64,000 bases of DNA from assembly GCF_024235715.1 (NCBI RefSeq), contig NZ_JACKLW010000012.1; one strand, 5' to 3'. Positions 2,028 through 24,018 of this stretch are shown one piece after another. The position numbers and the translations under genes are program-made. Position 1 is the stretch's first letter, and each line of letters begins with the position of its first letter. The DNA is from Accumulibacter sp. GTDB taxonomy: Bacteria > Pseudomonadota > Gammaproteobacteria > Burkholderiales > Rhodocyclaceae. The notes below the pieces were generated by a model. It had not been told where the DNA came from and did not search any database. It was given only the letters and a program-made list of their open reading frames with translations.

Positions 2028-2678
2028 TCAGCGCGACGGCGGGGTCGGCAAGGGTATTGACGGCGGCGGCGGCGCTGGCGCTGCGTAAGGACTCTGCGGG
2101 GCGAACATCGCGGCGCCCGGCAGCGGTACCAGCGCCGGCACAGCTGGCGGCGGCTGGCTGCCCTGGCCGGGAATCTGGCGCAATCCCGCCGTCGTCGGCA
2201 GTGCGATGAAGCGCCACTCGGAGTAGCGCGACGCGCCTTCGAAAGACTCGTTCTCGGGGGCGAAGCCGGCGATCTTGATCGGTTGCGCATTCGACAGGCT
2301 ATGCACCCCCATGATGCCGCCGCCCGGTGCGCCGACCACAGCCCAGTCATTCCTGCCGGTGATCGGGTCCGGGTACAGTTGCCGCAGATGCCGGCGCACG
2401 CCGGGATAGCGCGGGTCCTTGAGCAGATCGGCAAGGGCGCCCGGATAGCGGCGGTTGCCCGCCGGACTGCTGTTCAGATAGCTGGCAATCGCCTGCCGGT
2501 AGGCGTCGCCAACCTCGAGCAGCCGCTGTTCGGCCTCACGCCGCTGGACGATGCTGCCCAGGATCAGCGTGCCGCTGGTCGCCAGTGCCAGGATGGCGAC
2601 CAGGATCAACAGCCCGAGGTAGGTGAAGCCGGCCTCGCCACCTCCGGCACATGCCTCGCGACAGCGATCGTGCGACAT
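2028..2678 (-). CDS. Minor pseudopilin lacking Glu5 (GspK/PilX-like), Pro-rich tail
   Basis: Class III signal G|FTYLGLLILVAILA, followed by YPGALADLLKDPRYP...HLRQLYPDP. Confidence 0.75.
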   Translation of the reverse strand: MSHDRCREACAGGGEAGFTYLGLLILVAILALATSGTLILGSIVQRREAEQRLLEVGDAYRQAIASYLNSSPAGNRRYPGALADLLKDPRYPGVRRHLRQLYPDPITGRNDWAVVGAPGGGIMGVHSLSNAQPIKIAGFAPENESFEGASRYSEWRFIALPTTAGLRQIPGQGSQPPPAVPALVPLPGAAMFAPQSPYAAPAPPPPSIPLPTPPSR

Positions 2679-2680
2679 GG

Positions 2681-3091
2681 CTACAGATCGGCGAAGGGCT
2701 GGCCGTCCCGGGTGGCACCGGGGGCACCGCTCTTGAGGTCGTATACGTTGCCCCTGACCTCGGGCGAGCCGGCCGCATCGGGCGCAATCAGCAGCCAGCT
2801 GCCGGTACTCTCGGTGAACGGGTCGTAGGGCAGCGAGCGCAGGTACTTTTCGCTGACCAGTTCGTCGAGGCTGTCCGGGTAGCGTCCCTTGTCGCCATAG
2901 AACTTGTCGATCGTCTCGCGCACCAGATGCAGGTTTTCGCGCAGAACCGCTTCCTTGGCGACGTCGATGCTGTTGAAGTACCTTGGCACGGCCAGGGTGA
3001 GCAGCAGGGCGATGATCGACAGCACGACCAGCAACTCGATGAGCGTGAAACCGCGCGCGCGCCGATGCGCTTTGCCGCCGCGACTCACCAT
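2681..3091 (-). CDS. GspG-like pseudopilin
   Basis: G|FTLIELLVVLSIIA; DKFYGDKGRYPDSLDELV...YLRSLPYDP. Confidence 0.85.
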   Translation of the reverse strand: MVSRGGKAHRRARGFTLIELLVVLSIIALLLTLAVPRYFNSIDVAKEAVLRENLHLVRETIDKFYGDKGRYPDSLDELVSEKYLRSLPYDPFTESTGSWLLIAPDAAGSPEVRGNVYDLKSGAPGATRDGQPFADL

Positions 3092-3612
3092 TGCCGGTAG
3101 GGCACGCCGTTCAGGCCGATGCCCGTCGAACGCGAGTAGACGTCGTACACGTCGTCGCCCTCGCGAGGGTTGTCTGCGTCGCTGGCGTAGGCGCGCTTGG
3201 CCCAGGTGTCGGCTGCCGGCACGCTGCCGTCCGGATGCATGGGATCCCGCGGAATCCGGCGCAGGAAGTAGATCTTGCGGTGTTCGGGGTCGCGCAGATC
3301 CTCTTTGCCATCGACCAGGACCTGCAAGTTCTCGGGATAAGCACTGTCGCTCATGTCCCTCTCCAGGCGCCCTTCGTCACCGGCCCGCTTGTAGTCGTCG
3401 ATGGCCCCCCGGAGTTCACGCAGGGCGAGTCTCAGGTCCTGCTCCTTGCTGCGCTGGACCGCGGTTTGCGCAACCGGCACGACAACCCCGGCGAGTACGG
3501 CAACGACGGCGAGCGTGATCAGCAGTTCGATCAGCGAGAAACCGCCGACACCGGCGGCAGCCCACCGACGCCGAGACGCCTTCGGGAGGAACGCGAGCAG
3601 CCCGTTCACCAT
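3085..3612 (-). CDS. GspG-like pseudopilin
   Basis: G|FSLIELLITLAVVA; YP..LQVLVDG...YFLRRIPRDP...DVYDVYS. Confidence 0.85.
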   Translation of the reverse strand: MVNGLLAFLPKASRRRWAAAGVGGFSLIELLITLAVVAVLAGVVVPVAQTAVQRSKEQDLRLALRELRGAIDDYKRAGDEGRLERDMSDSAYPENLQVLVDGKEDLRDPEHRKIYFLRRIPRDPMHPDGSVPAADTWAKRAYASDADNPREGDDVYDVYSRSTGIGLNGVPYRQW

Positions 3613-3615
3613 CGC

Positions 3616-5988
3616 TCACGGGGCGATGGTCAGCGCATGCGCTGGCGGCAGGGTGGCATTGATCGCCGACCCGCCCAGGCCGACCGGTGCAATGGTGATC
3701 AGTTCGATGCGGGCGTCGCCCGGCGCCATGGCGCGGAAATTGAGCGTCGCAACATTGTCCTGGCCAGTGGCGCCGCCATTGCCCGAACGGGTCGCGGTCA
3801 TCAGCACCTGTCCGCCGGGGTCAACCCGATAGCTGAAACTGGTCTGCCCCCCGCCCTGCTTGAGGAAGCCGCCCTCGCTGACGTCGGCAAGCTGCACGAC
3901 GCGCGGATCGAAGCTGACGGCCAGCGGCAGGCTGACCACCGGTTGATCGGCCTGCATGACCAGTTGCAGCGAAAAACTGTCGCCCGCCTTGAGTTGCGTC
4001 GGCCCTTGCCAGAGCAGCTGCGCCGACCCACCCGACTGGGCAGCCGCCTGCAGGTCGTTTCCCGCTGCCGGCTGCGCCCCACCGCCAGCCGACTGCGATG
4101 GCGCGTCCGCCGGGGTAGCGCTCCTTGCCTGGCCTGGGCCGCCCGGGAGCGGCGGTGCAGCGAGATGTCCGACAGCGCCGGCCGCGCCGCCGAACACTGC
4201 GCTGCCACCAGCGCTGGCAAGCCGGCCGCGGAAGCTGTTCTCGGTACCGCCATCGAACTGCGCGAGATAGGCCTCCGGGCGCAGGATGTTGCGAATGATT
4301 CGTGGCGTGATCGAGAGCACGATCTCGGTCTTTATGCCCTCATTGTTCTGACTCCCGAACAGCCGGCCAAGCACCGGGATGTCGCCCAGGAACGGCACCT
4401 TGCTGGCCGTCCGGCGGTCCTCGTCGCTGATCAGACCGGCCAGCAGCTGGTTCTCGCCATCCTTGAGACGCAGGACACTGGTCGCCGTGCGCGTGCCGAT
4501 CCGGTAGGCGACGGTGCCCGAGCGCGTCTCGACACGGTCGACGATGTTGCTGACCTCGAGCGTCACCTTGATCGCCACTTCATTGTCGAGGTAGATCGTC
4601 GGTTCGATGTCGAGCTTGAGGCCGACATCGATGTAGGTGATCGACTCGGAGACGAAGCCCGTCGAGGTAGCGGTCGAGGTGATGTTCGGCACCCGTTCAC
4701 CAATCAGGATCTTGGCCTTCTCGCGGTTGCGGGCACGGATGCGCGGATTGGCCAGCAAATTGACGTCGGCGTCGAGCTGCTGGGCACGGATGACCACCGG
4801 ACCGACCGTTGCGCCTATGCTGGACGAGTTGAGATTCTGCAGGTCGTTCAGGGTCAGGGTGCCGCCGGTCGTCGACGGCAGCGGTGTCAGCGCCAGCGTG
4901 TTTGGCCAGTTCACCCCCAGGTCACGCAGCCGTGACCGCTTGACCTCGAGAATCTCCACTTCGAGCATCACCTCCGGTTCAGGCACGTCCTGCAGGGCGA
5001 CCAGCTTCTCGGCCACACGGATCGCTTCCGGGCTGTCGCGGATCATCAACAGGTTGAGCTTTTCGTCAACCACTACGTCCTTGCTCTTGAGGATCGTCTT
5101 CAGCGTCGTCGCGACGGTCTTGGCATCGGAGTTCGCCAGGTAAAAGGTTCTGACGCTCAGCGCCTCGTAGCTGCGCTGCTTGAGCGGCGTGTTCGGGTAG
5201 ATCAGGATCGAGTTGCCGTCGAGGACGCGCTGCTCGAGCTGGTTGGTGAGCAGCACCAGATTGATCGCCGCCTCGATGGTGCTGTTGCGCAGGAAAATGG
5301 TGACCAGCTGATCTGCGCGCACGTCCTTGTCGAAAACGAAGTTGAGCCCCGAGGTTCGCGAAATCACTTCGAAGACTGTCTTCAGCGGCGTATCCCGGAA
5401 CTCGATGGTGATCGGCTTGCGGTAGGCGACCGCCAGCACCGACTCCTCGGCGATGCGAGTCGTCCGCTCATCGACCATGCGCTGCAGCGCGAGCGCGCGA
5501 GCGTGTTTCGGATTGGCGGCCAGGATCCTGCGCAGGTTGGCCTGCGCCACCTCGGTGTCGCCCCTGTGCCAGGCGGCCTCGGCTTCGCCGTAAAGGGCTT
5601 CGTTGCGACGCGCGGTGTCCACCAGCTGCAAACCGGTGAGCGCCAGCTGATTGCCGGGCTGCAGCGCCAGGGCGCGGCGGAAGGAAGCATCGGCAGCGTC
5701 GTAGTGCGCCTCCGTTAAAGCACGCTGGCCGGCACTGTTACTGGCGTGGACGTAACGTTCCTGCGCCTGCGTGTAGGCGACGCGATACTCGGTGCTATCC
5801 GGGTCAAGGGCAATCGCTTGCTGAAGTTTGGCCAAACCGGCATCGACCTGCTCGGCGGCCAGCAGCGCCTGACCTTCGGTAAACGCGTTCTGCGCGGCGC
5901 AGCCTGCCAGCGACAAGGCCACGGCCACGCCCAGGCAGCAGCGCCACCAGGCTGCAGGCCCACTCCGGCCTGACTCTTCCTTGCTCAC
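3616..5988 (-). CDS. gspD: Secretin (GspD-like) with lipobox, TPR-like N-terminus, STN/N domains and C-terminal cohesin-like domain
   Basis: LAGC lipobox. Secretin core LLANPRIRARNREKAKILIGERVP...DVGLKLDIEP...KVPFLGDIPVLGRLF. Low-complexity linker, then a cohesin-like beta domain (LPLAVSFDPRVVQLADVSEGGFL). Confidence 0.9.
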   Translation of the reverse strand: MSKEESGRSGPAAWWRCCLGVAVALSLAGCAAQNAFTEGQALLAAEQVDAGLAKLQQAIALDPDSTEYRVAYTQAQERYVHASNSAGQRALTEAHYDAADASFRRALALQPGNQLALTGLQLVDTARRNEALYGEAEAAWHRGDTEVAQANLRRILAANPKHARALALQRMVDERTTRIAEESVLAVAYRKPITIEFRDTPLKTVFEVISRTSGLNFVFDKDVRADQLVTIFLRNSTIEAAINLVLLTNQLEQRVLDGNSILIYPNTPLKQRSYEALSVRTFYLANSDAKTVATTLKTILKSKDVVVDEKLNLLMIRDSPEAIRVAEKLVALQDVPEPEVMLEVEILEVKRSRLRDLGVNWPNTLALTPLPSTTGGTLTLNDLQNLNSSSIGATVGPVVIRAQQLDADVNLLANPRIRARNREKAKILIGERVPNITSTATSTGFVSESITYIDVGLKLDIEPTIYLDNEVAIKVTLEVSNIVDRVETRSGTVAYRIGTRTATSVLRLKDGENQLLAGLISDEDRRTASKVPFLGDIPVLGRLFGSQNNEGIKTEIVLSITPRIIRNILRPEAYLAQFDGGTENSFRGRLASAGGSAVFGGAAGAVGHLAAPPLPGGPGQARSATPADAPSQSAGGGAQPAAGNDLQAAAQSGGSAQLLWQGPTQLKAGDSFSLQLVMQADQPVVSLPLAVSFDPRVVQLADVSEGGFLKQGGGQTSFSYRVDPGGQVLMTATRSGNGGATGQDNVATLNFRAMAPGDARIELITIAPVGLGGSAINATLPPAHALTIAP

Positions 5989-6569
5989 TATGGCGATCCT
6001 CCGATCGGGATGGTCTGCAGTTTCTTCAGCGGCAGGTAGATCAAGGTCAGCGCCTGCGGAGCGATCTTCCTGACCTTGTAGGTGCCGGCGAGCGTCATTC
6101 CCTCGCGGACGATGAATACCTGCTCGCCGTGCCCGAGGTAGGCTTCCCAGCGCCCGTCTTCGAGTTTCTTGCCAAGGTACACGAAGGGAAGCGGCGGCGC
6201 CATGGGCGGCATTGGTCTGGCGACTCCTTCCGCCACCGGCGGAGGCGGCGGCGCCCAGCTCAGCGCAGGGAAAAGATCGCGAACCGGTCGGCCATCAGCA
6301 GCGCCGGGGATCAGCTCCTCGCGCGGAATCAGGGCCAGCACTTCCGGATCGGCTGCCGCCCTGTCCGAATCGGGCGCTGACCCCGGCAGGCGGCTGCGGG
6401 CGCCCTTGCGGGCTGCGGCAGGCGCTGCGCTGCCAGCGGCAGCACCGCTTCTCGCCGCTGCAACCACATCGACGACGGCGTCGGCCGGCGGCGTCTTGTC
6501 GCCGAACAGCGCCAACCATGCGGCGACGATCAGCAGCGCGAACAGGAGCAGACGTCGGAAGTTCATCAC
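5988..6569 (-). CDS. Secretion-system accessory protein (PilP/GspC-position)
   Basis: N-terminal hydrophobic anchor, Pro/Ala-rich linker and C-terminal beta domain (PPLPFVYLGK...). Translationally coupled within the cluster. Confidence 0.6.
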   Translation of the reverse strand: MMNFRRLLLFALLIVAAWLALFGDKTPPADAVVDVVAAARSGAAAGSAAPAAARKGARSRLPGSAPDSDRAAADPEVLALIPREELIPGAADGRPVRDLFPALSWAPPPPPVAEGVARPMPPMAPPLPFVYLGKKLEDGRWEAYLGHGEQVFIVREGMTLAGTYKVRKIAPQALTLIYLPLKKLQTIPIGGSP

Positions 6570-7180
6570 CCGCCCTCAGCATCGACGTCGCCAGCGGCGC
6601 GCCCTGCCGGCTGCGACGGATGATGCCAGATGGTCAGACGCACCCTTGCTTCGATCTCGTTGACGCCAATCGCGTCACGCTTGAAGCCAAGCTCGTTGAC
6701 CGCCAGGAAAACTTGCGTGGCGAGCAGTTCCTCGATCCAGCGACGGACGTCTGCATAGCGGCCCTTCACCGGAACGATCATCTGCACGGTTTCCGCTTGC
6801 GCACGCAGATCCCGGCCACGCAGGTACTCGGCGTGGTTGCTCGACAAGCCATGTCTGGCTGCCGAATCGAGCACCGCCTGAATGCTTGGCAACACCTGGC
6901 CTTCCTCGGCGAGCGTTCGCTGGAATGCCTGGTAGTGGCGTTCGGATGCCGACTCCACTGCGGCCACCGGCTGCGCGCCGCTCGCCACGCGCACCCGCAG
7001 TTCGCCGAGTACGGCCTCTTTCGCCGCCAGCTCGTTGCGCAGTGCCGGCATCAGGATCAGCGACAGGCCCAGCAGCAGGCAGAAGGCCAGGGCCAGCAGA
7101 GGCCACCACGGTCCATGCCGGTGCAAGCCGATTTCCGTGCGCAGGCGCAGGCGATCGGCGATCAGCGCGACCCTGTTCAC
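6566..7180 (-). CDS. PilO/GspM-like inner-membrane platform protein
   Basis: Single TM helix and coiled coil; C-terminal VPVKGRYADVRRWIEELL resembles the PilO/GspM ferredoxin-like fold. Confidence 0.65.
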   Translation of the reverse strand: MNRVALIADRLRLRTEIGLHRHGPWWPLLALAFCLLLGLSLILMPALRNELAAKEAVLGELRVRVASGAQPVAAVESASERHYQAFQRTLAEEGQVLPSIQAVLDSAARHGLSSNHAEYLRGRDLRAQAETVQMIVPVKGRYADVRRWIEELLATQVFLAVNELGFKRDAIGVNEIEARVRLTIWHHPSQPAGRAAGDVDAEGG

Positions 7181-7764
7181 CGGCGCTCCCGCGGGAGGTG
7201 CCCGCCTGCCGCGTTCGTTTGCCGATCGTCAAGCAGCGCCTCGAACACGAAGCGCAGCGGCCGATTGGGATCCCTGTCATTGATTTCCTGTTTGCTCACC
7301 ATCGCCCGGCCGAATGGCGCGACCGAGCCCAGCGCCGCCAGGTAGTCGAGCATTCCCTGGTAGTCCTTGGCCTCGGCGACACCCTTGACCAGATGGCGCC
7401 GGTTGTCTGGTTCGATCTGCAGCAGCGCGATCTCGCCCGTAGCGACGCTCTCGAAAGCGTCGAGCATTGCCGGCCAGGGGGTGTTCAGCTGGCCGATGAC
7501 ACCGTTGATCGCTGCCACCTGCGCCTCGGACAGGCGCAGCGGCGGTCGCGGCGGCGGCGTACGCATGTGCAGTTCCTGTCGCGTCAGCACGATGAGCTGC
7601 TCGCTTTCCGCGATCTGCCGATCCAGCTGCCACGCTTGCCAGGCCAGGGCAGCGGCGGCGATAGCGGTGAGCCCGCCGATGACGGCGAGGACGGCGCGCG
7701 CGCGCGCCGCAACCGGCAGCTGCCACCGAGGGCGGCTAACGAAATCAATGTTCAGATGCTTCAT
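7177..7764 (-). CDS. PilN/GspL-like protein
   Basis: Start re-called at ATG 7764 (MKHLNIDF), which overlaps the upstream stop. TM helix, coiled coil and W..MLDAFE...IALLQIEP pattern. Confidence 0.7.
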   Translation of the reverse strand: MKHLNIDFVSRPRWQLPVAARARAVLAVIGGLTAIAAAALAWQAWQLDRQIAESEQLIVLTRQELHMRTPPPRPPLRLSEAQVAAINGVIGQLNTPWPAMLDAFESVATGEIALLQIEPDNRRHLVKGVAEAKDYQGMLDYLAALGSVAPFGRAMVSKQEINDRDPNRPLRFVFEALLDDRQTNAAGGHLPRERR

Positions 7765-8618
7765 CGGCGACTCCCGGCGAGCGCCAGTTGGCCGGCGACG
7801 GAGCCGCCAGCCCCTTGCCGTACCAGGCCGCGCAGCGGTAGCAAGCGCGATTCGAGGCTGGCGACCCGGTCCGCTGCCGGCAACCAGTCGGCGGCCCCCG
7901 CCCACAACAGCGACAGCCCTTCGCCCCCCGTACCCTGCAGCGGGCTGCGCAGGCGTTCCTGCGTCACGAGGGTTTCGAGAGCGGCGAAATCGGGTGCGCC
8001 AGGCAGGCGCAAGCTGCGCATGGTGGCGGGCTGGTCGTTGCGGGTGCCAAGCAGGGTCAGCGTCTGCCCAAAACCGACCAGCAGCCAGCCGTTGGCCGGA
8101 ACCGACTCGCAAAGGCGGTTGCTGACCCGGACGAAAGCCGGGCCAAGCGAATCCAGTCGCCAGGAGTGCTTCTCTGCCAAGGCGTCGAGCGCCTGGCACA
8201 GCTGCCGCGGCAGCGCGCAGGCGATGAACGGTGCGCTCGCATGCCAGTCAGCCACCAGCAGCCACTGCTCGGCCAACTCACCGTAGAGTGTCGCGAAGCG
8301 TGCCTCGGCCGTCGCGCGCAGTTCGCGCAGCCCACGCGCTCCGCGTGGCGGCGTGACGACAAAGCTTCTGGCCAGGCTGTCGTCAAGGGTCACGGTCAGA
8401 AACGTGGACAGTGCCTTGCTAGCAGGCGGCAGCGGCGACGTCGGCTGCAGCGCTTGCAGCGCTGCGCACAGGGGGGCACTCAGCGCCGACGGCGAGGGGT
8501 CGACCGGCAGCGACGCCAGCAGTTCCGCCGCGGCCGTCGTCGACTCCGGCTCGGCCAGCAGCACGACCTCGTCGGCCGTGCAGCCAAGCAGCAGCTGCCT
8601 AGCCTGAAAGCGTGACAC
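7761..8618 (-). CDS. PilM/GspL-cytoplasmic-like protein
   Basis: Lies between the ATPase and the PilN-like gene with coupled overlaps; no TM segment. Assignment is mainly positional. Confidence 0.5.
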   Translation of the reverse strand: MSRFQARQLLLGCTADEVVLLAEPESTTAAAELLASLPVDPSPSALSAPLCAALQALQPTSPLPPASKALSTFLTVTLDDSLARSFVVTPPRGARGLRELRATAEARFATLYGELAEQWLLVADWHASAPFIACALPRQLCQALDALAEKHSWRLDSLGPAFVRVSNRLCESVPANGWLLVGFGQTLTLLGTRNDQPATMRSLRLPGAPDFAALETLVTQERLRSPLQGTGGEGLSLLWAGAADWLPAADRVASLESRLLPLRGLVRQGAGGSVAGQLALAGSRR

Positions 8619-10311
8619 GGCGAAGCTCGTCCAGGGTCGTTTCGCCGCTGGCGACCAGGCGCAGTGCGGCTTCCATCAGGCTGCGCGTGCCGTGGCGGTA
8701 GGCGACCTCCTTGAGTTGCCTGATCGGGCGCTTTTCGATGATCAACTCGCGCAACTCGTCGTTGAGATTGAGGATCTCGGCAATCGCCTTGCGGCCGCGA
8801 TAGCCGGAGCCACGGCAGTCGCCGCAGCCGCTGCCGCGGCGGAAATCGAAACGCGCCATTTCGTCGGCGGCAATGACGAAACGTTCGAGTTCGGCCGCGC
8901 CCGGCGTATAGGAGGTACTGCAGCGGGCACAGTTGACGCGCAGCAGACGCTGCGCCCAGATGCCGTTCAGGGCCGAGGCAAAGGCGTAGGGGTCGATGCC
9001 CATGTGCGTGAAACGCCCGAAAACGTCGAAGACGTTGTTGGCATGCACGGTGGTCAGCACCAGATGCCCGGTCAGTGCCGACTGCACGGCGATCTCGGCA
9101 GTTTCGCGGTCGCGGATCTCGCCGACCATGATCTTGTCGGGATCGTGCCGCAGGATCGAGCGCAGGCCGCGAGCGAAGGTCAGGCCTTTCTTGTCATTGA
9201 CCGGAATCTGCAGCACGCCCGGCAACTGGTACTCGACCGGATCCTCGATGGTGATGATCTTGTCGCGACCGTTGTTGATCTCCGAGATTGCGCCGTAGAG
9301 GGTGGTCGTCTTGCCCGAGCCGGTCGGGCCGGTCACCAGCAGCATCCCGTAGGGTTCTTCGACGAGTCGCCGCAGCGCTTTCAGCGAATGTGCGTCGAAG
9401 CCGAGCAGGTCCAGCGTCAGCGCACCGTGCGCCTCGATGACCCCGCGCTTGTCGAGGATGCGCACGACGGCATCCTCACCGTGAATGCTCGGCATGATCG
9501 ACACCCGCAGGTCGATGTCGCGGCCGGCCACCTGCACCCGGAAGCTGCCGTCCTGAGGTGTTCGCCGCTCGCCGATGTCGAGTTCGGCGAGCACCTTCAG
9601 CCGCGACACCACCTGCTCGGCGAGCACCACGCCGCTGATCTGCGCAACCGTGTCGAGCACTCCGTCGAGACGGTACTTGATGGTGATGCCGGTCGGCGTA
9701 CTCTCGAGATGGACGTCGCTGGCCGCTGCCCGCACCGCGTCGAAGACCGTCGAATTGACCAGCTTGACGGCCGGGCTGGACGCCTCGCTGACCGACGCGT
9801 AGCTGAGCACTTCGGCGGTCCGGCCATTCTCGGGTGCCGTGGCGGCATCGTGCACCAGCGACTGCACCGCGTGCACCGATTCCTCATGCTTCGACAGATA
9901 GGCCTGGATGTCGGCCGCCAGCGCCAGGCTGTAGTGCACCGGCGTGCCGACCAGGCTGCTCAGCCACACCATGCAATCGCTGTCATAGGGATCCGCAATG
10001 ACGCCGATGATCTGGCGATCAACGCCATCGCCACCACTCGGCGTCGAACGCAGCAGCAGGCAACCTCGCTGCTGCGCCCTGACCAGCGGCAGAAGGTCGA
10101 AAGCCGCGCCGCAGGACAGCATCCCGGCGCTGTCCAGGACCGGCAGGCGAAAGTGTCGGGCGAGATCGTCGACCACCTGGCGCGGCTCGCGGCCGGTCAG
10201 CGCCTCGAGTTCGCTGACCAGTGATCGCCCAGAAACCTGCGCCAGATTCCTCGCCTGCTGCAGCAGGACGTCGTCGAGGCCCTGGCTGACGTCACCGCCG
10301 GGGGCATTCAT
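8599..10311 (-). CDS. gspE: GspE/PilB-family secretion ATPase
   Basis: Start re-called at ATG 10311. Walker A GPTGSGKTT, TIEDPVE, LRHDPDKIMVGEIRD, His box GHLVLTTVH and CxxC...CxxC. Confidence 0.93.
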   Translation of the reverse strand: MNAPGGDVSQGLDDVLLQQARNLAQVSGRSLVSELEALTGREPRQVVDDLARHFRLPVLDSAGMLSCGAAFDLLPLVRAQQRGCLLLRSTPSGGDGVDRQIIGVIADPYDSDCMVWLSSLVGTPVHYSLALAADIQAYLSKHEESVHAVQSLVHDAATAPENGRTAEVLSYASVSEASSPAVKLVNSTVFDAVRAAASDVHLESTPTGITIKYRLDGVLDTVAQISGVVLAEQVVSRLKVLAELDIGERRTPQDGSFRVQVAGRDIDLRVSIMPSIHGEDAVVRILDKRGVIEAHGALTLDLLGFDAHSLKALRRLVEEPYGMLLVTGPTGSGKTTTLYGAISEINNGRDKIITIEDPVEYQLPGVLQIPVNDKKGLTFARGLRSILRHDPDKIMVGEIRDRETAEIAVQSALTGHLVLTTVHANNVFDVFGRFTHMGIDPYAFASALNGIWAQRLLRVNCARCSTSYTPGAAELERFVIAADEMARFDFRRGSGCGDCRGSGYRGRKAIAEILNLNDELRELIIEKRPIRQLKEVAYRHGTRSLMEAALRLVASGETTLDELRRVTLSG

Positions 10312-11510: not shown

Positions 11511-11528
11511 CCCTGCCCCGCCGGATTC

Positions 11529-12766: not shown

Positions 12767-13062
12767 GCCCAGGTAGATCCGATTAGGCGCACACTATGCG
12801 GTTGCTTGTCCCGCGTCGATCGCAACTTGCCCTTGCCACCCGCGCCCGTGTGCAGCATGCGTTACCGATCAAGCGGCCACACGTCAGCCGTTGAGCATAG
12901 CATGCCCGCGAGGCGATGGGCCGCAACTCGCACACGCGGCGGCGCCCGGCCGCTTCGGAGAGCACTTCGCTACGCCAAGAACGCCGGGCGGGAAAACCGC
13001 GAATCGTGGATATGCGTGGCTGCCGTTAGCGGTTTCCCCGGGAATGCGCCGCCGAAAAACGC

Positions 13063-15057: not shown

Positions 15058-15559
15058 GCGTACCTCCCCGACTCTCATTACGCTACGAAGGGCGGAACGG
15101 GAAACGGCATCCGTGCGCAAGCCGACGCCATTTATCCCACATCCACCACAGGGATAGTACATGCAGCAAAACGGAATATGCAAGCACGCTTATGGAGGCA
15201 GAACGGGGGCAAGCGACAACCTGCCATTGCAAGACGCAAGAGCGCCACGGGGTGACTTGTTCTCGTGCCGGGAGCAAGGTGATGCTTGGCCAGTGGAATC
15301 GTTGGCCATGTGCAGATCGTCGAAAACCAGGCGGATGTTGCGGCTGAGCCGTCCCATTCCTTCGGCGAGGCTGCCAGGAGGGGTGTGCATCCGTACAGCG
15401 GTGAGCATCATCCTGGCATCCTGTGCGACAGCTGGGGTTGAGTATCGAACAGGAAAGCGGTGCGCGAGCGTCAGCCTGCGGTGGGCGAACGAAGACTGGT
15501 TTGGCCTCCTGCGGGTGGGTGCTGTAGTCTTCCCGCGTGCGGCGAAAGCCTTGCGTCAG

Positions 15560-15815
15560 TCCCAGGCAGGGCCGGTTGGCGACCAGACCCAGGCGATCAT
15601 ACGGATGCCGATGCCCCATCCGATCCAGCGGTCGCAGACGCCGCATTCCAGAGCGCGGCCAAAACAGTCAGCAACGCCGCCAACGCTTCGCTGTCGGTGG
15701 CAAAGTACCAGAGGGTGTTGCCAGTCTTCGCCAGATCGCCAAAGTATTGATGCTGCGCCATCAACATCCGATAGCGAGCCTCTTCGCTCTTGTCCACCCG
15801 GCGAACACGCAAGCA
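15560..15815 (-). pseudogene. Frameshifted fragment of a DUF4338-type IS transposase N-terminus
   Basis: One frame reads RVRRVDKSEEARYRMLMAQHQYFGDLAKTGNTLWYFAT and another continues ALECGVCDRWIGW. Together they resemble the HHYLG..KIGxTLWYVA...DRWIGW signature as I recall it. No DDE domain follows. Confidence 0.65.
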
Positions 15816-16083
15816 CCAGGATCGCTTTCCAGGTGCGACTCACTCGCACCTTCTTCTGCAGTGTTCAGGGGAAAAAGTAGCTGCTTGATTCGCTGTGCAG
15901 TGGCTTAGAGGACAAATTGATCCTGGTGGTCGCAGCGTCGCGCGGTCGACGGCAGGAGCGAATACGGTACCATGCACGTCTGTCGGTAAGCCACGGAGAC
16001 AGCGGTCGCCGCCAGACGAAACGCCGGCTTATCTGTCGCCGAAGCACGCCGCACAGGCGATGAAGTTTGCAGGGAGAACGATC

Positions 16084-18879
16084 ATGAAACGGCAACCACA
16101 TCGCTGGCGCACCGCCGCGACGCTCTGTCTGGCAGCGGCGATTGCCGGTTGCAGCGCCGACAAGGATGAAGCGACGGCGATCGCAGCCGTTCGCGCGCAG
16201 ATCGAAAACAAGCAGCACGAGGCAGCCATCGTCGAGCTGAAGTCGCTGCTGCAGGGGCTGCCGCGGTCGGCCGAGGGCCGCTTCCTGCTTGGCGAAGCCT
16301 TGCTCGCCACCGGTGACGCGGCGGGGGCGGAGGCCGAGCTCCTGCGTGCCCTGGAGAATGGCTTTCCCGCCGCAGAAGTAGCCGTGCCGCTGGCGACTGC
16401 GCTGCTGGCCCTCGGCAAGCCACAGGAGTTGATCGATCGCTACCGGGGACTGAATCTCGACGCCGTCGATGCCGACGCTGAATTGAAGACCCAGATCGCC
16501 CTCGCCTACGCCGAGAACGGCGACTTCGGCGAAGCCGAGAGCATGCTCGCCGCGGCCTTGCAGCGGGCGCCTGGATATGCACCTGCTCGTCTGCTCGATG
16601 CCCGCCTGCGGGGCACTCGAGGCGACCTGCGTAAGGCACTGGCGATCGCCGACGAGGTACTGGCCCAGGCGCCTGACAATGCGCAAGCCTGGTTGCTCAA
16701 GGGCGATCTGCTGCTGGGAAGCGATCCCGCCAGCGCCGAATCCCTGGCCGCCTATCAAAAGGCGCTCGCGATACGGGCCGATCTATTGCCGGCGCATCGC
16801 GCGCTGGTCACGATGCGGATCAGACACCGTGATATCGAGGGTGCCCGAAAGCAATTGGCCGAGATGTCGAAGGCCCTGCCGGGACATCCGCAGACGATGT
16901 ACTACGAAGCGCTGATCGCCTATCTTGACGGCAATCTCGAGCAGACGCGTGAGATCACCCAATTGCTGGTGCGAGGTTCGCCGAACAACGCCAGGGTGCT
17001 GCTCCTCGCCGGACTGGCCGAAACCAGGCTCGGCGCGCTGACACAGGCCGAGTCGCTGCTGCTGCGGGCGATGGAAGCCGCGCCGAAGGCCCCCGAGCCG
17101 CGGCGCGCGCTCGCCGCCGCCTATTTGCAGGCCGGCGAAGCGAAGAAGGCGCTGGCGATACTTGACTTCCTCGAATCGCTGATCAACTCGCCGCGCTCGG
17201 AAGACGGCGAGTCGCTGGCTCTGGCAGCCCAGGCCTATCTGTTGCTAGGAGACTTCGGCAAGGCCGACGCGAACTTCGCCCGGGCGGCGCTCTTGTTGCC
17301 GGAAGACCGGGAACTGCGCATCGCGCGAGCACGCGCTCGGCTCGGGCGCGGACAGGACGAGGAGCCGCTGGCCGAACTCACCGAAATCGCGACGATGGAT
17401 CGTGGCGCGTCAGCCGATCTGGCGCTTATCAGCGCACGACTGCGGCGCAAGGAATGGGACGCCGCCCTGACCGCGGTCGATGGGCTGGCAAGAAAACTTC
17501 CCAAGAGTCCGCTGCCCGAGCAGTTGCGAGGCGCCATCGCCTGGGCAAGGCACGACGCGGCGGGCGCGCGCAGACAATTCGAGCAGGCGCTGGCCAAGGA
17601 TCCGCGCTACGTTCCGGCCATCCAGGGGATGGCGACCATCGAGCTGGCGGAGAACCGGCCGGTTGCAGCTCGGGCGCGTTTCGAACGACTGTTGGCCGAC
17701 GACCCACAGAACGTATCAGCGATGATCGCCCTCGCTGAGTGGATGGCGCGCACTGGCGCACCGACCGAACAAAGCCTCGAGCTGTTGAACAGAGCCGTGA
17801 AGACCCGCCCGAACGATCCGGCCCCCCATCAGGCGCTCATCGATCAATACCTGCGCAGCGGCGACCAGACGGCTGCGCTGACGGCGGCTCGAGCGGCAGT
17901 TATGGCCCTTCCCTCGGAGACGGTCTTGCTCGAACGCCTTGGCGCTCTGCAATTGGCGGCTGGCGACACGAATCAGGCGATCCTGACCTTCTCCAGCCTC
18001 ATGCGCGCGACTCCCGGTTCCGCTGCCGCCCGTCTGCGCCTCGCCAACGCCTTCCTGGAGGCCGGCAAGACGCGTGAGGCAGATGATCAGGTGCGCATGG
18101 CGACGCAGCTGGAACCCGCGTCGCGCGCCGTACAACAGGCCGGTGTAGCGATGGCGATGCGCCAGGACCAACCGGCCAACGCCTTGCAAGGGGCGAAAGC
18201 GCTGCAGCGACAGTTTCCGACGGATGCACTTGGCTTTCGCCTCGAAGGTGATATTGAAGCCAGCCAACGGAACTGGGAAAAGGCGATCAGTGCTTTCGGG
18301 AAGGCGCTGGTGCTTGATGATCCCGGCGACACTTCCGTACGCTTGCATTGGGCGCTTGCGACTGGAGGCAAGCCCGCAGAGGCGAAGCAGTTCGAGGAAA
18401 CCTGGCTGAAGGACCACCCGCGTGACGCGGACTTCCTCATTCATCTGGGCGACATGGCGATGCTGCGCGACGACTGGCCGGCGGCCGAGGCGTACTACCG
18501 GCAGGTGCTCGAACTGCGGCCGAATCAGGCGCTGGCACTGAACAACCTGGCGTATCTGCTGGTCAAGCTGAAGAAACCAGGTGCCTTGCCGCTGGCCCAG
18601 CGGGCGGTGGCCTTGGCCCCTCGGCGCCCCGACATGCTCGATACCCTGGCGCTCGCCTACGCCGACGCGATGCAGTTTGATCGGGCCATCGAGACACAAC
18701 GCAAGGCCATCAACCTGGCGCCGGAGTCGCCAAGCCTGCGGCTGGGCTTGGCGCGGCTGTACCTGCAGGCCGGCGACAAGGAACAGGCGCGCGAGGAACT
18801 GCTGACTCTCGCCGCACGCAGCGAGCCGTTCAGCGGACAAGGCGAGGTCGCCGCCCTGCTCAAACAGGCCAGCCCTTGA
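16084..18879 (+). CDS. prsT: PEP-CTERM system TPR-repeat lipoprotein (PrsT family)
   Basis: ATG 16084 with GGAG; lipobox IAGC; about 930 aa of tandem TPR repeats; C-terminal LNNLAYLL...DTLA pattern; adjacent to a PEP-CTERM gene. Confidence 0.8.
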   Translation: MKRQPHRWRTAATLCLAAAIAGCSADKDEATAIAAVRAQIENKQHEAAIVELKSLLQGLPRSAEGRFLLGEALLATGDAAGAEAELLRALENGFPAAEVAVPLATALLALGKPQELIDRYRGLNLDAVDADAELKTQIALAYAENGDFGEAESMLAAALQRAPGYAPARLLDARLRGTRGDLRKALAIADEVLAQAPDNAQAWLLKGDLLLGSDPASAESLAAYQKALAIRADLLPAHRALVTMRIRHRDIEGARKQLAEMSKALPGHPQTMYYEALIAYLDGNLEQTREITQLLVRGSPNNARVLLLAGLAETRLGALTQAESLLLRAMEAAPKAPEPRRALAAAYLQAGEAKKALAILDFLESLINSPRSEDGESLALAAQAYLLLGDFGKADANFARAALLLPEDRELRIARARARLGRGQDEEPLAELTEIATMDRGASADLALISARLRRKEWDAALTAVDGLARKLPKSPLPEQLRGAIAWARHDAAGARRQFEQALAKDPRYVPAIQGMATIELAENRPVAARARFERLLADDPQNVSAMIALAEWMARTGAPTEQSLELLNRAVKTRPNDPAPHQALIDQYLRSGDQTAALTAARAAVMALPSETVLLERLGALQLAAGDTNQAILTFSSLMRATPGSAAARLRLANAFLEAGKTREADDQVRMATQLEPASRAVQQAGVAMAMRQDQPANALQGAKALQRQFPTDALGFRLEGDIEASQRNWEKAISAFGKALVLDDPGDTSVRLHWALATGGKPAEAKQFEETWLKDHPRDADFLIHLGDMAMLRDDWPAAEAYYRQVLELRPNQALALNNLAYLLVKLKKPGALPLAQRAVALAPRRPDMLDTLALAYADAMQFDRAIETQRKAINLAPESPSLRLGLARLYLQAGDKEQAREELLTLAARSEPFSGQGEVAALLKQASP

Positions 18880-18960
18880 CGCTCAAGAAACCCGCAGACG
18901 CCCTCGCTCGTCCGCCGTGACCGAGTTGCGGGAGCGGGCTCTTGCCGGACGCACAACGCA

Positions 18961-18988
18961 AAAGAACCCCGCCGAAGCGGGGCTCCTG
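18961..18988 (-). terminator. Rho-independent terminator of the PEP-CTERM gene
   Basis: Minus strand AGGAGCCCCGC-TTCG-GCGGGGTTCTTT, a GC stem with a UUCG loop and a U-rich tail. Confidence 0.75.
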
Positions 18989-19016
18989 GTGCGCGAAGCT
19001 GACTGGTCGTCGGCCG

Positions 19017-19775
19017 TCAGGCGCGCCCGCGGCGGCGCGCGCCGACACCAGCCAGCAGAGCGAGGCCGAACAGCGCCAGTGTCGCCGGCTCGGGAACCTC
19101 GTTTCCGCCCGGACCACCACCGCCACCGCCACCTGGGAAGCGCGGTTCGCTCAAACTCGTCCCGTACTGAAAGAACACGTTGCTGATCTGTGTCAGGCTG
19201 AAGCCGCTGGCGGGAGTCAGCAGGAAGGTCACCGAATGCTTGGTAATCTCGTTGTTGGCAATGCCGCCGTTGCCGGTGGCCAGATTATCCCCGGCCGAAG
19301 TCAGCCCGTATTGCAGCCCGTTGACCGCGACCGGGCCGGCAAGGTTGGGTCCGTTGAAGTTGCCGCTACCGAAAATGCCCAAGCCGGTGCTCGAAATCCC
19401 GGCATTGACTGTCGGCAGGCTGCCACTGGCGACAGGTGCGTAGGCCCACTCGCCACCCACGTTCGTCCCGGCACCGTTCTGCAGAACCCCATTCTTGTAT
19501 GTGGGGCCATCGGATAGTGCCGACAGCGGCGACAACTGGCTGGCGCCCCCCGTTCCCGATACATTGAAGAAGACGCCCGTCAGCACGTCAACTGGAACCA
19601 ACACATCGGCGAGGCTCGTATTGTCCAGCCGGACCTGCAGTTTGCCGGCGACGATGTCAAAGCTGACAGACGCTGCGCGGCTCCCCGAGGTGCCGCTGAA
19701 GCTGACCGACGCCGATGCCGGGAAAACAACCGCCAGCAAAGGCAGGACGACCATGGCTGCTCGCAGTGCTTTCAT
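19017..19775 (-). CDS. PEP-CTERM exosortase-sorted surface protein (N-terminal region resembles the XDD4-type domain)
   Basis: Signal peptide, Gly linker GGGGGGPGG, C-terminal VPEPATLALFGLALLAGVGARRRGRA (PEP + TM + basic tail). Confidence 0.92.
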   Translation of the reverse strand: MKALRAAMVVLPLLAVVFPASASVSFSGTSGSRAASVSFDIVAGKLQVRLDNTSLADVLVPVDVLTGVFFNVSGTGGASQLSPLSALSDGPTYKNGVLQNGAGTNVGGEWAYAPVASGSLPTVNAGISSTGLGIFGSGNFNGPNLAGPVAVNGLQYGLTSAGDNLATGNGGIANNEITKHSVTFLLTPASGFSLTQISNVFFQYGTSLSEPRFPGGGGGGGPGGNEVPEPATLALFGLALLAGVGARRRGRA

Positions 19776-19813
19776 TTCCGTGCTCCACGACTAATTTTCA
19801 ATGGCAAGATAAA

Positions 19814-19829
19814 AGCAATATTCGGGCCA
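19814..19829 (-). promoter_or_regulatory. Sigma-54 -24/-12 promoter of the PEP-CTERM gene
   Basis: Minus strand TGGCCCGAATATTGCT = GG-N10-GC, about 40 nt upstream of the ATG. Confidence 0.8.
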
Positions 19830-19836
19830 GTACCTA

Positions 19837-19849
19837 CAATCCATTGATT
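19837..19849 (-). promoter_or_regulatory. IHF binding site
   Basis: Minus strand AATCAATGGATTG is an exact WATCAANNNNTTR match, lying between the UAS and the sigma-54 site. Confidence 0.65.
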
Positions 19850-19893
19850 TAGTAATTGCCAAGCCGCTTTTACGACAAAAAATCGCGAGGGAC

Positions 19894-19910
19894 TGTAAAG
19901 ATTTTCGACA
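19894..19910. promoter_or_regulatory. Enhancer-binding-protein UAS (PrsR-type candidate)
   Basis: TGTAAAGATTTTCGACA (TGT-N11-ACA), 65 nt upstream of the -24 GG. Confidence 0.6.
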
Positions 19911-20125
19911 ACGCCGGCCGGTCAATTTGCCGGGATAATGCGCCGAGGACAGCCAGCAGCCACGGGGAGCCCTTCCTGCCGCGAAAGACTCTCCTGGCAA
20001 CACCAAGGTCGCGCCGAGCGCTACCGAGCCACGAGGCTGCAGCGCGATGGATCAGGCGGAAGCGACTCCCATCTACCCGAGGCTAGCTGGATTTCATGGC
20101 CGCCGCTGCCCGCCAATCCGAGCAC

Positions 20126-21961
20126 CTACCTGACAACGACGATGATCGACTTGGACGCGGAGTTGCCCGCGGCGTCCCTGGCCGTCAAGGTGAGGAGATG
20201 ATTGCCCGCTGACGCTTTTTTCGTGTTCCAGCGTGCGCTCAGGGTGCCGCCACTCACCGTCGCGTTCAGTTCGCCGTCGATAAAAAGCGATTGCGTGACG
20301 CCATTGACGCCGAGATTGTCGTCCGCCACGCCCTCAATGCGCACGACCTTGCTCACCGTGGCGCCATTCGCTGGCGCGCTGAAGACGACGGTCGGCGGCA
20401 CCGTGTCCGCTGCCGCCGCGCCGTTGGCGACGGTTACGCTTACCGGCTGCGAGCCGGTATAGTTGCCCGCCGCATCGTAGGCATAGGCAATCAGCGTCGC
20501 CGGCCCGTCGGCGATTGCGGTAGTGTCCCAACTGAAACCGTGCGGCGCCGTCGTATCGGTGGCGTACTTGCTGCCGTTGACGACCAGGTCCACGCTGACC
20601 ACGCCGACGTCGTCACTGGCCGCGACATCGACCGCTACCAGACCGGCGACCTTTCCGCCGGCAGGCGCGGAGATGGCAACCGTCGGCGCCTGCGTGTCGA
20701 AAGCCGTCGTCGTGGCCGCGGCCAGGGTGGCCTGCGCAGCATCGACGCGCCCCGCGCCGTAGTAGTCGTCCCTGCCTGCCGTGCCCAGATCGACCGAGGT
20801 CGAATAAAGGAGACTTTGCACCTGATCGGCGGGAAGCGCCGGGTTGGCGGCCATCATCAGCGCAGCCGTGCCGGCAACGATCGGACTCGCGAAAGACGTC
20901 CCTGACCACTGACCGTAGCCACCACCACGACTGGTCGTCAGGACGCTCTGACCGGGCGCCGCTATGTCCACGTAAGCGCCGTAGTTGGACCACGAGGTTC
21001 TCGCGTCACTGCTGTTGGTTGCCGACACGACGACCAGGTTGCCGGAGGAAGCGACGGTCTGCAGGGTGCCGCTGTTACCGGCACAGATCACGGTCAGCCC
21101 GCCCTTGCTCTTCAGGTACTGCGCGGCACTTTCGACGGTGGAACTGCTGGCGACGTTTTCGTAGCTGATGTTGGCGACACGGGCGCCATGATCCGCCGCC
21201 CAGGTCAGGCCGCTGGCCATGGTGCTGAAGTAGCCGTAGCCGCTGGGGTCAGAGATGCGCACGGGCATGATCTTCGAGCCGTAAGCTACCGATGCGACGC
21301 CGATGGCGTTGTTGCCGGATGCGGCCGCGGTACCGGCCACGGCCGTGCCGTGGCCATGCACGTCCGAGGAGTCACCATTGTTGTCGTAGCTGTTCCAGCC
21401 TGGGACCATCTGCGCGAACAGGTCGGGATGGCTGGCGTCGACACCAGTATCCAGGATGGCGATGATCACTTCGCTGCCGGTAGAGGTGTCCCACGCCGCC
21501 TGAGCGCCGACCTTGGCGAGGTGCCACTGGCTGGCCAGGGATGGGTCGTCGGTCGTCCCGCCCGGGGCGAGGATTTGGTCCTGTTCGACGAACTTGAAGT
21601 GCTTGTTCTTGGCCAGCAGCGCCGCGACGGCCTTGCTATTGGCTTGTGCAGGCAATTGCACCACATGCACGTTGATTCCGTTGATCTTGCCGACCCGCTT
21701 GCCGCCATGCGGTTTGAGGATCTTGTCCACCTCGACATCGCTCAGGCCGGCACGCTGCTGGATCAGGAGCCGTCCAGGCACGAAGTCGAGCGGCGGTGGA
21801 CCGGCAAGCGGAGACGCGGCAAACGCCGGGGCGATGACGATCCCGAGGGCCAGGGCAAGCAGCCGGCCAGCGGAAACGATCTGTGACGACTTGCCGCCAG
21901 AATCAGCCCGAATGCATGCACTCGTACCGATGGCAAGGAAGAGGGATTGGCTGGTCAACAT
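20126..21961 (-). CDS. Secreted S8 subtilisin-like serine protease with two C-terminal Ig-like domains
   Basis: Triad ILDTG / HGTAVAG / GTSFASP, with prodomain and signal-like segment. Two repeats start DTQAPTVAISAP / DTVPPTVVFSAP and contain AYDAAGN / ARDAAGN. GGAG precedes the ATG. Confidence 0.92.
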   Translation of the reverse strand: MLTSQSLFLAIGTSACIRADSGGKSSQIVSAGRLLALALGIVIAPAFAASPLAGPPPLDFVPGRLLIQQRAGLSDVEVDKILKPHGGKRVGKINGINVHVVQLPAQANSKAVAALLAKNKHFKFVEQDQILAPGGTTDDPSLASQWHLAKVGAQAAWDTSTGSEVIIAILDTGVDASHPDLFAQMVPGWNSYDNNGDSSDVHGHGTAVAGTAAASGNNAIGVASVAYGSKIMPVRISDPSGYGYFSTMASGLTWAADHGARVANISYENVASSSTVESAAQYLKSKGGLTVICAGNSGTLQTVASSGNLVVVSATNSSDARTSWSNYGAYVDIAAPGQSVLTTSRGGGYGQWSGTSFASPIVAGTAALMMAANPALPADQVQSLLYSTSVDLGTAGRDDYYGAGRVDAAQATLAAATTTAFDTQAPTVAISAPAGGKVAGLVAVDVAASDDVGVVSVDLVVNGSKYATDTTAPHGFSWDTTAIADGPATLIAYAYDAAGNYTGSQPVSVTVANGAAAADTVPPTVVFSAPANGATVSKVVRIEGVADDNLGVNGVTQSLFIDGELNATVSGGTLSARWNTKKASAGNHLLTLTARDAAGNSASKSIIVVVR

Positions 21962-22104
21962 TTCGGGTCTCCGTTATGTTGGCCTGAACTGAGCACAGCA
22001 TGGGAGCCTGTTGACCAGAGTCGCCGGAAAGGAACGGGCAGCCACTACAGATGGCCACATCCCTGACGACGCGCCATGCGCGCCGCCTGACGAACACTAC
22101 TCGC

Positions 22105-22189
22105 ACTTGGCAGTCCCGCTGTCTTGGCCGAAGCCGTCAGACCGGTCACTTTGCGCCCCAGGCTTTCGCTTGGTTTGCCTTTTTCAAGT
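22105..22189 (-). ncRNA. c-di-GMP-I (GEMM) riboswitch
   Basis: Minus strand ACTTGAAAAAGGCAAACCAAGC-GAAA-GCCTGGGGCGCAAAGTGACCGGTCTGACGGCTTCGGCCAAGACAGCGGGACTGCCAAGT. It shows GGCAAACC, a GAAA tetraloop, GGCGCAAAG, CCGG...GCGGG and the closing ACTTG/CAAGT stem, 144 nt upstream of the S8 start. Confidence 0.85.
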
Positions 22190-23793: not shown

Positions 23794-24018
23794 GGCATCC
23801 TCCCCTTTTGGTTGCACAAGTGTAGCACCAGTCCTGCCGCGAAGGCTCGCGCCGCACCGGTTGGCCACCGAGCTCCGGGGAGTGGTGGCGAAAGCCCCCG
23901 CGCGAGGCCTGGCGAGCGGCTGGCGAGAGTGTCCGGGGTCGTCCGCGGGAAAATGCTTTTCATTTGACCGCAAGGCCACTATTAGGCTATTTTTGCCTGT
24001 TTTATTCGAGCCTTTCCC

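Follow-up and report, generated by a model that had tools for sequence, protein, structure and literature searches.

Does a block of genes for export and surface proteins encode one dedicated machine, or several parts with separate histories? This question is raised by a window of 64,000 nucleotides from Accumulibacter sp. (Rhodocyclaceae; NCBI RefSeq assembly GCF_024235715.1, contig NZ_JACKLW010000012.1), the whole stretch of DNA that was analyzed. About 20 kb of it hold a gene cluster that resembles type II secretion systems (T2SS), a nine-heme cytochrome with an immunoglobulin-like (Ig) domain, a PrsT-family lipoprotein, a PEP-CTERM protein of the XDD4 family, and a subtilase of family S8 behind a riboswitch. 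A sequence-only reading of this DNA proposed a dedicated module, in which the T2SS-like machine secretes the cytochrome and the S8 protease cleaves it to its active extracellular form in the floc state, as in the OzpA/OmcZ pair. The listing of open reading frames (ORFs), together with Pfam and NCBIfam scans of the window, recovered every component named in that reading at its place: the secretion cluster, cytochrome, PrsT, XDD4, S8 and aptamer (Table 1). In our comparisons, the block is probably a mosaic of three independently inherited units, namely the export cluster (unit A), the cytochrome (unit B), and the PrsT paralog with XDD4 and the riboswitch-controlled S8 protease (unit C). Overall, it is an ordinary mosaic of known part types with one lead, the T2SS-like export of PEP-CTERM and matrix proteins. 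In the following, G000 is the source genome, other G-labels are comparison genomes, L-labels are loci, and C-labels are contigs.

The decomposition into three units and their separate inheritance are observed directly in protein maps and nucleotide alignments. The backbone of the locus consists of sixA, the 12-gene export cluster, a slot, a SpoIIAA/rhodanese gene, xseB, ispA and dxs, and the position of unit A between sixA and rhodanese-xseB-ispA-dxs is constant in the nine examined genus genomes that retain the flank. Thus, of the earlier description of the block as an interval between core genes, only a part stands: the export cluster itself belongs to the syntenic core, and only the slot from slt to the rhodanese gene, about 12.6-22.6 kb of the window, is variable. 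This slot is empty in G021, G022, G005 and G033; it holds only the cytochrome in L089 and in G008, the latter with an additional oxidoreductase-like gene; in G031 and G015 it is filled by a TPR membrane protein gene and by genes for a different PEP-CTERM protein and a different PrsT-like lipoprotein (30% identical), with S8 only in G031; and in the present window it carries the cytochrome, PrsT paralog, XDD4 and S8. By nucleotide alignment, window positions 12642-22573 are extra relative to G021, and 15139-22604 are extra relative to L089. The rhodanese gene at the slot border (22583-23979, minus strand) is broken into two ORFs that overlap and are read in different frames (23428-23979 and 22583-23464), whereas L089 has one 418-aa gene; the split is a frameshift or an assembly error.

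The occurrence of the cytochrome and of the S8 protease bears most directly on the proposed module. The closest relative, L089, has the cytochrome (85% identical) with the T2SS and without the unit C cassette. Among 37 genus genomes searched, the cytochrome is found in the source genome and G008 only. The S8 orthologs in the genus, beyond the source genome, are in G016, G031, G005 and G035; these four genomes have no cytochrome and G008 has no S8 ortholog, so that the two genus profiles are disjoint save for the source genome. In a neighbourhood set of 80 cytochrome loci, each taken with flanks of at most 10 kb, homologs of S8, PrsT or XDD4 occur in 0/80. Because S8 and cytochrome do not co-occur, a maturation of the OzpA/OmcZ type is without comparative support. 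What speaks for a dedicated module is that all parts lie inside 20 kb, that the cytochrome family adjoins T2SS-type genes in several lineages, and that S8 and cytochrome both have a signal peptide and Ig-like domains. Against it, beyond these distributions, two genes on differing strands separate S8 from the cytochrome, and S8 has its own promoter-like site and riboswitch. We therefore regard a single co-inherited module with a cytochrome-maturing protease as highly improbable.

Unit C can also be followed on its own. Beyond the source genome, G005 alone of 40 genus genomes was found to have an XDD4 ortholog; on contig C99 it adjoins a PrsT ortholog (71% identical), and the two genes converge just as they do in the window. 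The riboswitch-S8 unit of G005 lies at one end of contig C11. Both contigs have flanks that match other parts of the source genome (contigs C14, C17 and C7) and not the T2SS locus, and therefore unit C appears to be an independently moving cassette, a further point against the dedicated module. The PrsT of the cassette is a paralog, since the main PrsT copy on contig C19 scores better (935 bits with TIGR02917). With PrsT, a PEP-CTERM substrate, and exosortase A (XrtA at C5:404066, 358 bits), the source genome has the constituents of an XrtA/PEP-CTERM system; neither PrsK nor PrsR is found in the block. PrsT has been defined by phylogenetic profile only (PMC1569441). The better copy (C19:30438-36414) has another SLT-domain gene about 3 kb off.

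Table 1. Features of the export and surface-protein block, in window coordinates
Feature	Position	Strand	Basis
Unit A, export cluster of 12 genes	2028-12766	-	Pfam/NCBIfam scans, fold search
Pseudopilin-like protein, 216 aa, third gene after secretin	2028-2678	-	N-terminal hydrophobic segment GFTYLGLL; no Pfam match
Minor pseudopilin, 136 aa	2681-3091	-	PF07963 N_methyl
Minor pseudopilin, 175 aa	3085-3612	-	PF07963 N_methyl
Secretin lipoprotein, 790 aa	3616-5988	-	TPR, STN, Secretin_N, Secretin, low-complexity linker, C-terminal Cohesin
Unknown gene, bitopic product, 193 aa	5988-6569	-	one predicted transmembrane segment
Unknown gene, bitopic product, 204 aa	6566-7180	-	one predicted transmembrane segment
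Unknown gene, bitopic product, about 195 aa	7177-7764	-	one predicted transmembrane segment
PilM / cytoplasmic-GspL-like actin-fold protein, 285 aa	7761-8618	-	predicted-fold match
GspE ATPase	8599-10305	-	PF00437, 393 bits
GspF platform protein	10308-11510	-	PF00482, 162 bits
GspG major pseudopilin	11529-12038	-	PF08334, 135 bits
SLT-domain lytic transglycosylase (slt), heading the conserved cluster	12035-12766	-	PF01464, 89 bits
Unit B, nine-heme Ig cytochrome	13063-15057	-	
Unit C, PrsT paralog, XDD4 PEP-CTERM protein and riboswitch-controlled S8	about 15139-22604		
PrsT-family TPR lipoprotein	15895-18879	+	TIGR02917, 646.6 bits (cut-off 312.2)
XDD4-family PEP-CTERM protein	19017-19775	-	NF045504, 213 bits; PF07589
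Secreted thermitase-like S8 subtilase, fervidolysin-type prodomain, two Big_7 Ig domains	20126-21961	-	PF00082, 173.5 bits; PF17957; PF22148
Terminator-like hairpin between aptamer and S8 start	22058-22038	-	terminator scan
GEMM-I-clan aptamer	22105-22188	-	RF03167, 62.3 bits (gathering score 59)
Promoter-like site in S8 leader	22288-22259	-	promoter scan

What kind of machine is unit A? From its gene content, it is a complete type II-like machine of the type IV filament superfamily, atypical and adjoining genes for exported proteins, in agreement with the earlier description of an atypical T2SS/pseudopilus and a near-complete export apparatus. GspG is the sole protein of the cluster to pass an equivalog cut-off (TIGR01710, 165.6 bits versus 88.85). 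GspE (TIGR02533, 488 versus 630) and GspF (TIGR02120, 262 versus 424) stay below theirs, with clear Pfam families. The two minor pseudopilins match N_methyl at 36.3 and 21.6 bits, all GspH/I/J/K models being under cut-off, and the 216-aa pseudopilin-like protein is kept at the same position across genus genomes with 73-84% identity. The secretin is under cut-off with the PilQ, GspD and MshL equivalog models (TIGR02515 for PilQ, 177.6 versus 284.35; TIGR02517 for GspD, 163 versus 351), and its nearest solved structures are PilQ and GspD, matched in the barrel region alone. Its C-terminus (window 3616-4100, about 130 aa) is a cohesin domain (PF00963, 30.8 bits) tethered via an Ala/Gly/Pro-rich linker of about 100 aa, and this domain is conserved, since the alignments of many order-level secretin homologs extend right up to the C-terminal end. 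The slt gene is syntenic in the genus.

Four further genes of the cluster were placed by fold and position. The 285-aa protein has no Pfam match, and a sequence profile search against the PDB was empty; its AlphaFold2 model (pLDDT 84.7) has P. aeruginosa PilM as the best Foldseek match (E 1e-11) and also matches the cytoplasmic part of EpsL/GspL (TM 0.6). Given this PilM-like fold, the four unknowns and the secretin match the order PilM-N-O-P-Q; equivalently, they may be modeled as cytoplasmic GspL, periplasmic GspL, GspM, GspC and GspD in order. The three bitopic proteins have no family match in the Pfam and NCBIfam scans, and their order and sizes are kept across the bacterial order. Because of their size, their one membrane segment each, and their placement with the PilM-like gene on one side and the secretin on the other, we infer that they are PilP/GspC-like, PilO/GspM-like and PilN/GspL-periplasmic-like.

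The pilMNOPQ order invites a different view of unit A, as the builder of a short surface fibre, akin to MSHA or type IV pili, that would serve in adhesion or in building flocs, with the cohesin-bearing secretin as its outer-membrane port. It would fit the PilM fold of the first of these genes, the slightly higher score of the secretin with the PilQ model than with the GspD model, and the failure to detect GspC, GspL and GspM sequence families. However, the major subunit is a GspG by its equivalog, the cluster has no retraction ATPase (PilT), a separate set of PilQ, PilB/C/D and PilT is encoded elsewhere in the source genome, and an SLT gene heads the cluster with secreted-protein genes alongside. 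A fibre is accordingly an improbable identity for unit A.

The distribution of unit A was surveyed in the source genome, the genus and the order. The source genome has two secretins in total, this one and a PilQ; GspL (TIGR01709) is absent from the entire genome, and a single prepilin peptidase of the A24 type (PF01478) lies outside the cluster at G000:C5:1041480. Unit A is thus the only T2SS-type machine of the source genome, within a 90%-complete assembly. The secretin subtype is present in about 23/40 genus genomes and, across the order as sampled evenly with 401 genomes, in 155/401 genomes and 71/167 genera, with the gene order of unit A common to several families. GspL is also missing from almost all sampled genomes of the family to which the source genome belongs (f1), several of which carry the secretin subtype instead, and order-wide the subtype and GspL are statistically independent (odds ratio 0.93). 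These profiles suggest that unit A is a distinct, widespread and unstudied T2SS variant, which would work like a T2SS and fails the equivalog tests outside GspG. Other arrangements were seen as well. At L135 (G408:C1:1663800-1683734), the secretin and the 193-aa gene have no adjacent gspEFG, and four PEP-CTERM genes of FxDxF/PEPxxWA type lie around them; at L141 (G242:C4:287200-307193), gspG is followed by three huge ORFs (1013, 1282 and 1265 aa), two of them near-identical.

The cytochrome belongs to a very large, uncharacterised family: over 4600 homologs are about 55-65% identical to it, and over 590 loci were located in genomes of Betaproteobacteria, Campylobacterota, Acidobacteriota and further phyla. 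The protein has a signal peptide and a Big_2-like Ig domain, together with nine CxxCH motifs and a conserved beta domain that is free of heme (AWNDLGMHC); PF22113, the MtrC/MtrF domain II/IV-like heme region, scores 44.7 bits versus 30. Its AlphaFold2 model is mediocre (pLDDT 64, heme region poor), with generic Ig-like Foldseek matches only, and a profile search against solved structures matched the Big_2 domain alone. The earlier reading noted that the block holds no MtrB-type porin gene, and indeed no porin-like gene was found within the 20 kb. Two papers on iron-oxidiser cytochromes (PMC5566968, PMC10734462) describe neither this family nor a link to the T2SS.

Is the cytochrome tied to T2SS-type machines at all? 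Such genes adjoin it with the same secretin subtype at L018, L024 and L028/G147, with other T2SS types at L019, L058, L062 and L068, and further at L089, L090, G008 and G355. This adjacency, roughly one locus in ten, exceeds chance from a handful of such genes per genome, and it recurs with a different T2SS type in Campylobacterota. The cytochrome is present in 9/401 order genomes, and 9/9 of these carry the secretin subtype (Fisher p about 2e-4). They are also 9/9 for XrtA, and lifestyle or phylogenetic confounding is therefore indicated. The figure is weakened in the wider set of 41 cytochrome-positive proteobacterial genomes reached through the cytochrome loci, of which only 22 have the subtype; 13 more have canonical GspL, giving 35/41 with some T2SS versus 256/401 order-wide. 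The adjacency in several lineages holds, and a strict coupling to the subtype does not. With modest support, the link seems real but loose, fitting a T2SS cargo and not a dedicated machine.

De novo clustering of neighbours at the 80 cytochrome loci gave no universal partner, only lineage-specific sets. In Thiobacillaceae, Hydrogenophilales and one Rhodocyclaceae metagenome-assembled genome, the cytochrome is flanked by three conserved genes, for DUF6502, a Gly-rich protein with DUF5666 and an outer-membrane channel of the Phenol_MetA_deg type (L090 4192-7845, L021, L023, L024, L026, L028, L030 and L037), a trio that may be a lineage-specific partner set. In Campylobacterota, it is accompanied by a 277-aa outer-membrane beta-barrel-like protein and a small acidic 119-aa protein (L056, L059, L061, L066, L067, L071, L073, L075, L076, L080, L081 and L085).

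If unit A is a T2SS-like machine of broad use, what does it export? The comparison with exosortases offers a lead. Exosortase calls were TIGR03109 matches in the 401-genome sample, and the odds ratios are uncorrected for phylogeny and genome size. Exosortase is associated with the secretin subtype with an odds ratio of 5.0 by genome and 6.6 by genus (counts 52/19/28/68, p 2e-8); for canonical GspL as a control it is 2.7, and among GspL-negative genomes only, the subtype-exosortase odds ratio rises to 9.5. The secretin subtype or GspL is present in 141/159 exosortase-positive versus 115/242 exosortase-negative genomes, leaving 18/159 exosortase-positive genomes with neither machine. In addition, a PEP-CTERM gene lies within about 13 kb of gspG at 5/29 order-level loci and at 3/12 loci of the genus level, the latter drawn from 11 genus genomes and the metagenome contig L089; the background in the source genome is about 0.06 per 13 kb. 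G409a and G203 are from different families, and in both an NF038120 PEP-CTERM gene comes directly after gspG, with one or two subtilase genes of the I9-S8-PA-fn3 architecture next in line, an arrangement that echoes the XDD4-S8 pair of the window. These data suggest that unit A may export PEP-CTERM and matrix proteins. We tentatively propose that the T2SS-like subtype is the outer-membrane route for exosortase substrates and floc or biofilm matrix proteins in Betaproteobacteria, that canonical T2SS substitutes elsewhere, and that the PrsT paralog, PEP-CTERM protein and c-di-GMP-controlled S8 form a plug-in cassette for cargo and trimming. In the literature searched, no report of T2SS dependence was found for PEP-CTERM/exosortase substrates, and in Haft 2006 GspE appears merely as a weak partial-profile example and not as a claim.

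The same neighbourhoods could arise by coincidence, if the slt-rhodanese interval were an insertion hot spot and the machine exported other substrates with no functional tie to its neighbours. The empty slot of four genus genomes would be expected in that case, and so would the housekeeping genes that lie beyond gspG at most subtype loci in other families; moreover, the correlation of GspL with exosortase suggests lifestyle confounding. On the other hand, three different sets of exported-protein genes recur in the slot, PEP-CTERM genes lie near gspG above their background, a PEP-CTERM gene and then S8 subtilase(s) directly follow gspG in G409a and G203, and the cytochrome also adjoins a T2SS of a different type in Campylobacterota. 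Coincidence is in our view a possible explanation, though an unlikely one. Separately, exosortase-family genes below the XrtA cut-off were observed near the subtype secretin, on the pseudopilin side, at about 5 kb in G136 (G136:C16:19729-20499) and 17 kb in G291 (G291:C1:124640-125419).

The S8 protease is a self-contained unit with its riboswitch, and nothing in the comparisons ties it to the cytochrome. Its Asp/His/Ser motifs are intact (DTGVD, HGHGT and GTSFASP), and its closest solved structure is thermitase (E 3.6e-47). The aptamer is placed 144 nt upstream of the S8 start and belongs to clan CL00126; a near-invariant copy is upstream of all four S8 orthologs in the genus and of one paralog, and the G035 copy shows a compensatory change in one of its stems. 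The S8 gene had been assigned a GEMM-I riboswitch of its own, which is borne out at the level of the clan, with the best Rfam model being a variant, RF03167 (c-di-GMP-I-GGC; c-di-GMP, cyclic di-GMP), and not the classical one. Yet the sequence is CGCAAAG in each of the six copies, so that an A stands at a position that is G in the consensus of that model. We take this to be the canonical intercalating adenine position of the riboswitch class, which makes c-di-GMP the likeliest ligand; the S8 riboswitch thus most likely binds a cyclic dinucleotide, c-di-GMP. The paralog (C10:123141-127621; L171 7141-11621) is a 1441-aa protein with S8, Big_7 and a right-handed beta-helix/NosD-like region; its RF03167-type aptamer lies 72 nt upstream, and its neighbours are unrelated (DUF3014, epimerase and histidine kinase).

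Taken together, the parts can be arranged in a provisional mechanism. Unit A would be the general and sole T2SS of the cell, in which a pseudopilus of GspG is put together on GspF and the PilM/N/O/P-like platform, powered by GspE, with prepilins processed by the single PilD encoded elsewhere. The SLT protein would open the cell wall for assembly of the machine, and the pseudopilus would push folded periplasmic proteins through the secretin. We infer three candidate cargoes among the neighbours: the S8 protease, for which export by unit A is slightly favoured; the cytochrome, for which the chances seem evenly balanced; and XDD4, which may be exported after exosortase processing. The level of S8 would be set by the cyclic dinucleotide, most likely c-di-GMP, and the protease would act on PEP-CTERM or matrix proteins.

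Several observations weigh against the mosaic reading and the role given to unit A. The source assembly is about 90% complete, and a second T2SS could have escaped assembly. The oxidoreductase-like gene in the G008 slot is unrelated to the other contents, so the slot may be a mere insertion hot spot, as the coincidence explanation has it. The S8 and XDD4 genes of G005 are on two contig ends, their adjacency being deduced from orientation, and an overlap between the C11 and C99 ends was sought and not found. The secretin subtype is missing from 19/41 cytochrome-positive proteobacterial genomes, and the cytochrome is far from the cluster in G403 and G072. Finally, export of the three neighbours is assigned to unit A because they are adjacent to it and it is the sole T2SS.

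These results change how the block should be classified. As the comparisons give no support to a cytochrome-maturing protease, it should not be catalogued as a new system for extracellular electron transfer. Attention shifts to a T2SS-like machine that is present in about 40% of the sampled order genomes and has an unusual TPR/STN/cohesin secretin and no assigned function. Exosortase systems almost always coexist with a T2SS or T2SS-like machine, and PEP-CTERM/S8 pairs recur beside unit A; the crossing of the outer membrane by PEP-CTERM proteins, a question standing since 2006, thereby becomes directly testable. If the proposed route is true, the missing outer-membrane step of the PEP-CTERM pathway would be filled. 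Furthermore, a compact cassette of riboswitch, protease and surface protein could control floc cohesion.

How does this locus compare with known systems? In Geobacter sulfurreducens, OzpA and OmcZ form a protease-cytochrome pair, and the window likewise encodes a subtilisin-family protease and a multiheme cytochrome in one region. In contrast to that pair, S8 and the cytochrome here neither co-occur nor co-locate in any other genome examined, and S8 accompanies a PEP-CTERM protein and a PrsT paralog. In Shewanella, the decaheme cytochromes MtrC and OmcA are displayed on the surface in a T2SS-dependent manner. Judged from genes alone, the window resembles this case in having an exported multiheme cytochrome with a PF22113-type region encoded beside a T2SS-type machine. 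Its cytochrome differs in having nine hemes and not ten, no lipobox, a TIGR03507 score of 17.2 bits versus a cut-off of 209.3, and no MtrAB-type partner nearby, the block holding no periplasmic decaheme gene; the resemblance therefore appears to be at the domain level only.

A closer parallel for the protease is found in Clostridioides difficile, where a class I c-di-GMP riboswitch controls ZmpI/PPEP-1, a protease that cleaves adhesins anchored by sortase and sets them free (PMC6366702). In both cases, a secreted protease lies behind a class I-type riboswitch together with genes for C-terminally sorted surface proteins. Unlike ZmpI/PPEP-1, the protease here is S8 and not M34, the host is Gram-negative, and the sorting enzyme is an exosortase and not a sortase. 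By this analogy, it is more plausible that S8 acts on PEP-CTERM and matrix proteins, trimming or releasing them, than that it matures the cytochrome. For the export route, the parallel is with GlyGly-CTERM/rhombosortase and MYXO-CTERM/myxosortase proteins, which require the T2SS to arrive at the surface (PMC11980579). Those systems and the one proposed here have in common a tripartite sorting tag at the C-terminus, a membrane protease dedicated to sorting and a T2SS, with the difference that the evidence linking PEP-CTERM to the T2SS here is statistical and positional.

Unit A itself shares with the canonical Gsp/Pul/Eps systems (Klebsiella Pul and Vibrio Eps) a GspG-type major pseudopilin, GspE, GspF, a secretin, minor pseudopilins, a partner with the actin fold of cytoplasmic GspL, and the reliance on a prepilin peptidase. 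It differs from them in lacking recognisable GspC, GspL and GspM sequence families, in having GspD, GspE, GspF and GspH-K under their equivalog cut-offs, in the pilMNOPQ arrangement of its assembly genes with an SLT gene at the cluster head, and in its secretin, a lipoprotein with N-terminal TPR and STN domains and a C-terminal cohesin. From type IVa pili, it differs in failing the PilQ equivalog and in having no retraction ATPase in the cluster. In Dechloromonas aromatica, which belongs to the same bacterial group, homologs of PulD/E/F/G with a lytic transglycosylase interspersed among them were described as 'secretons of unknown function' with no cargo assigned (PMC2907700). Compared by description alone, this fits unit A, which probably corresponds to that secreton.

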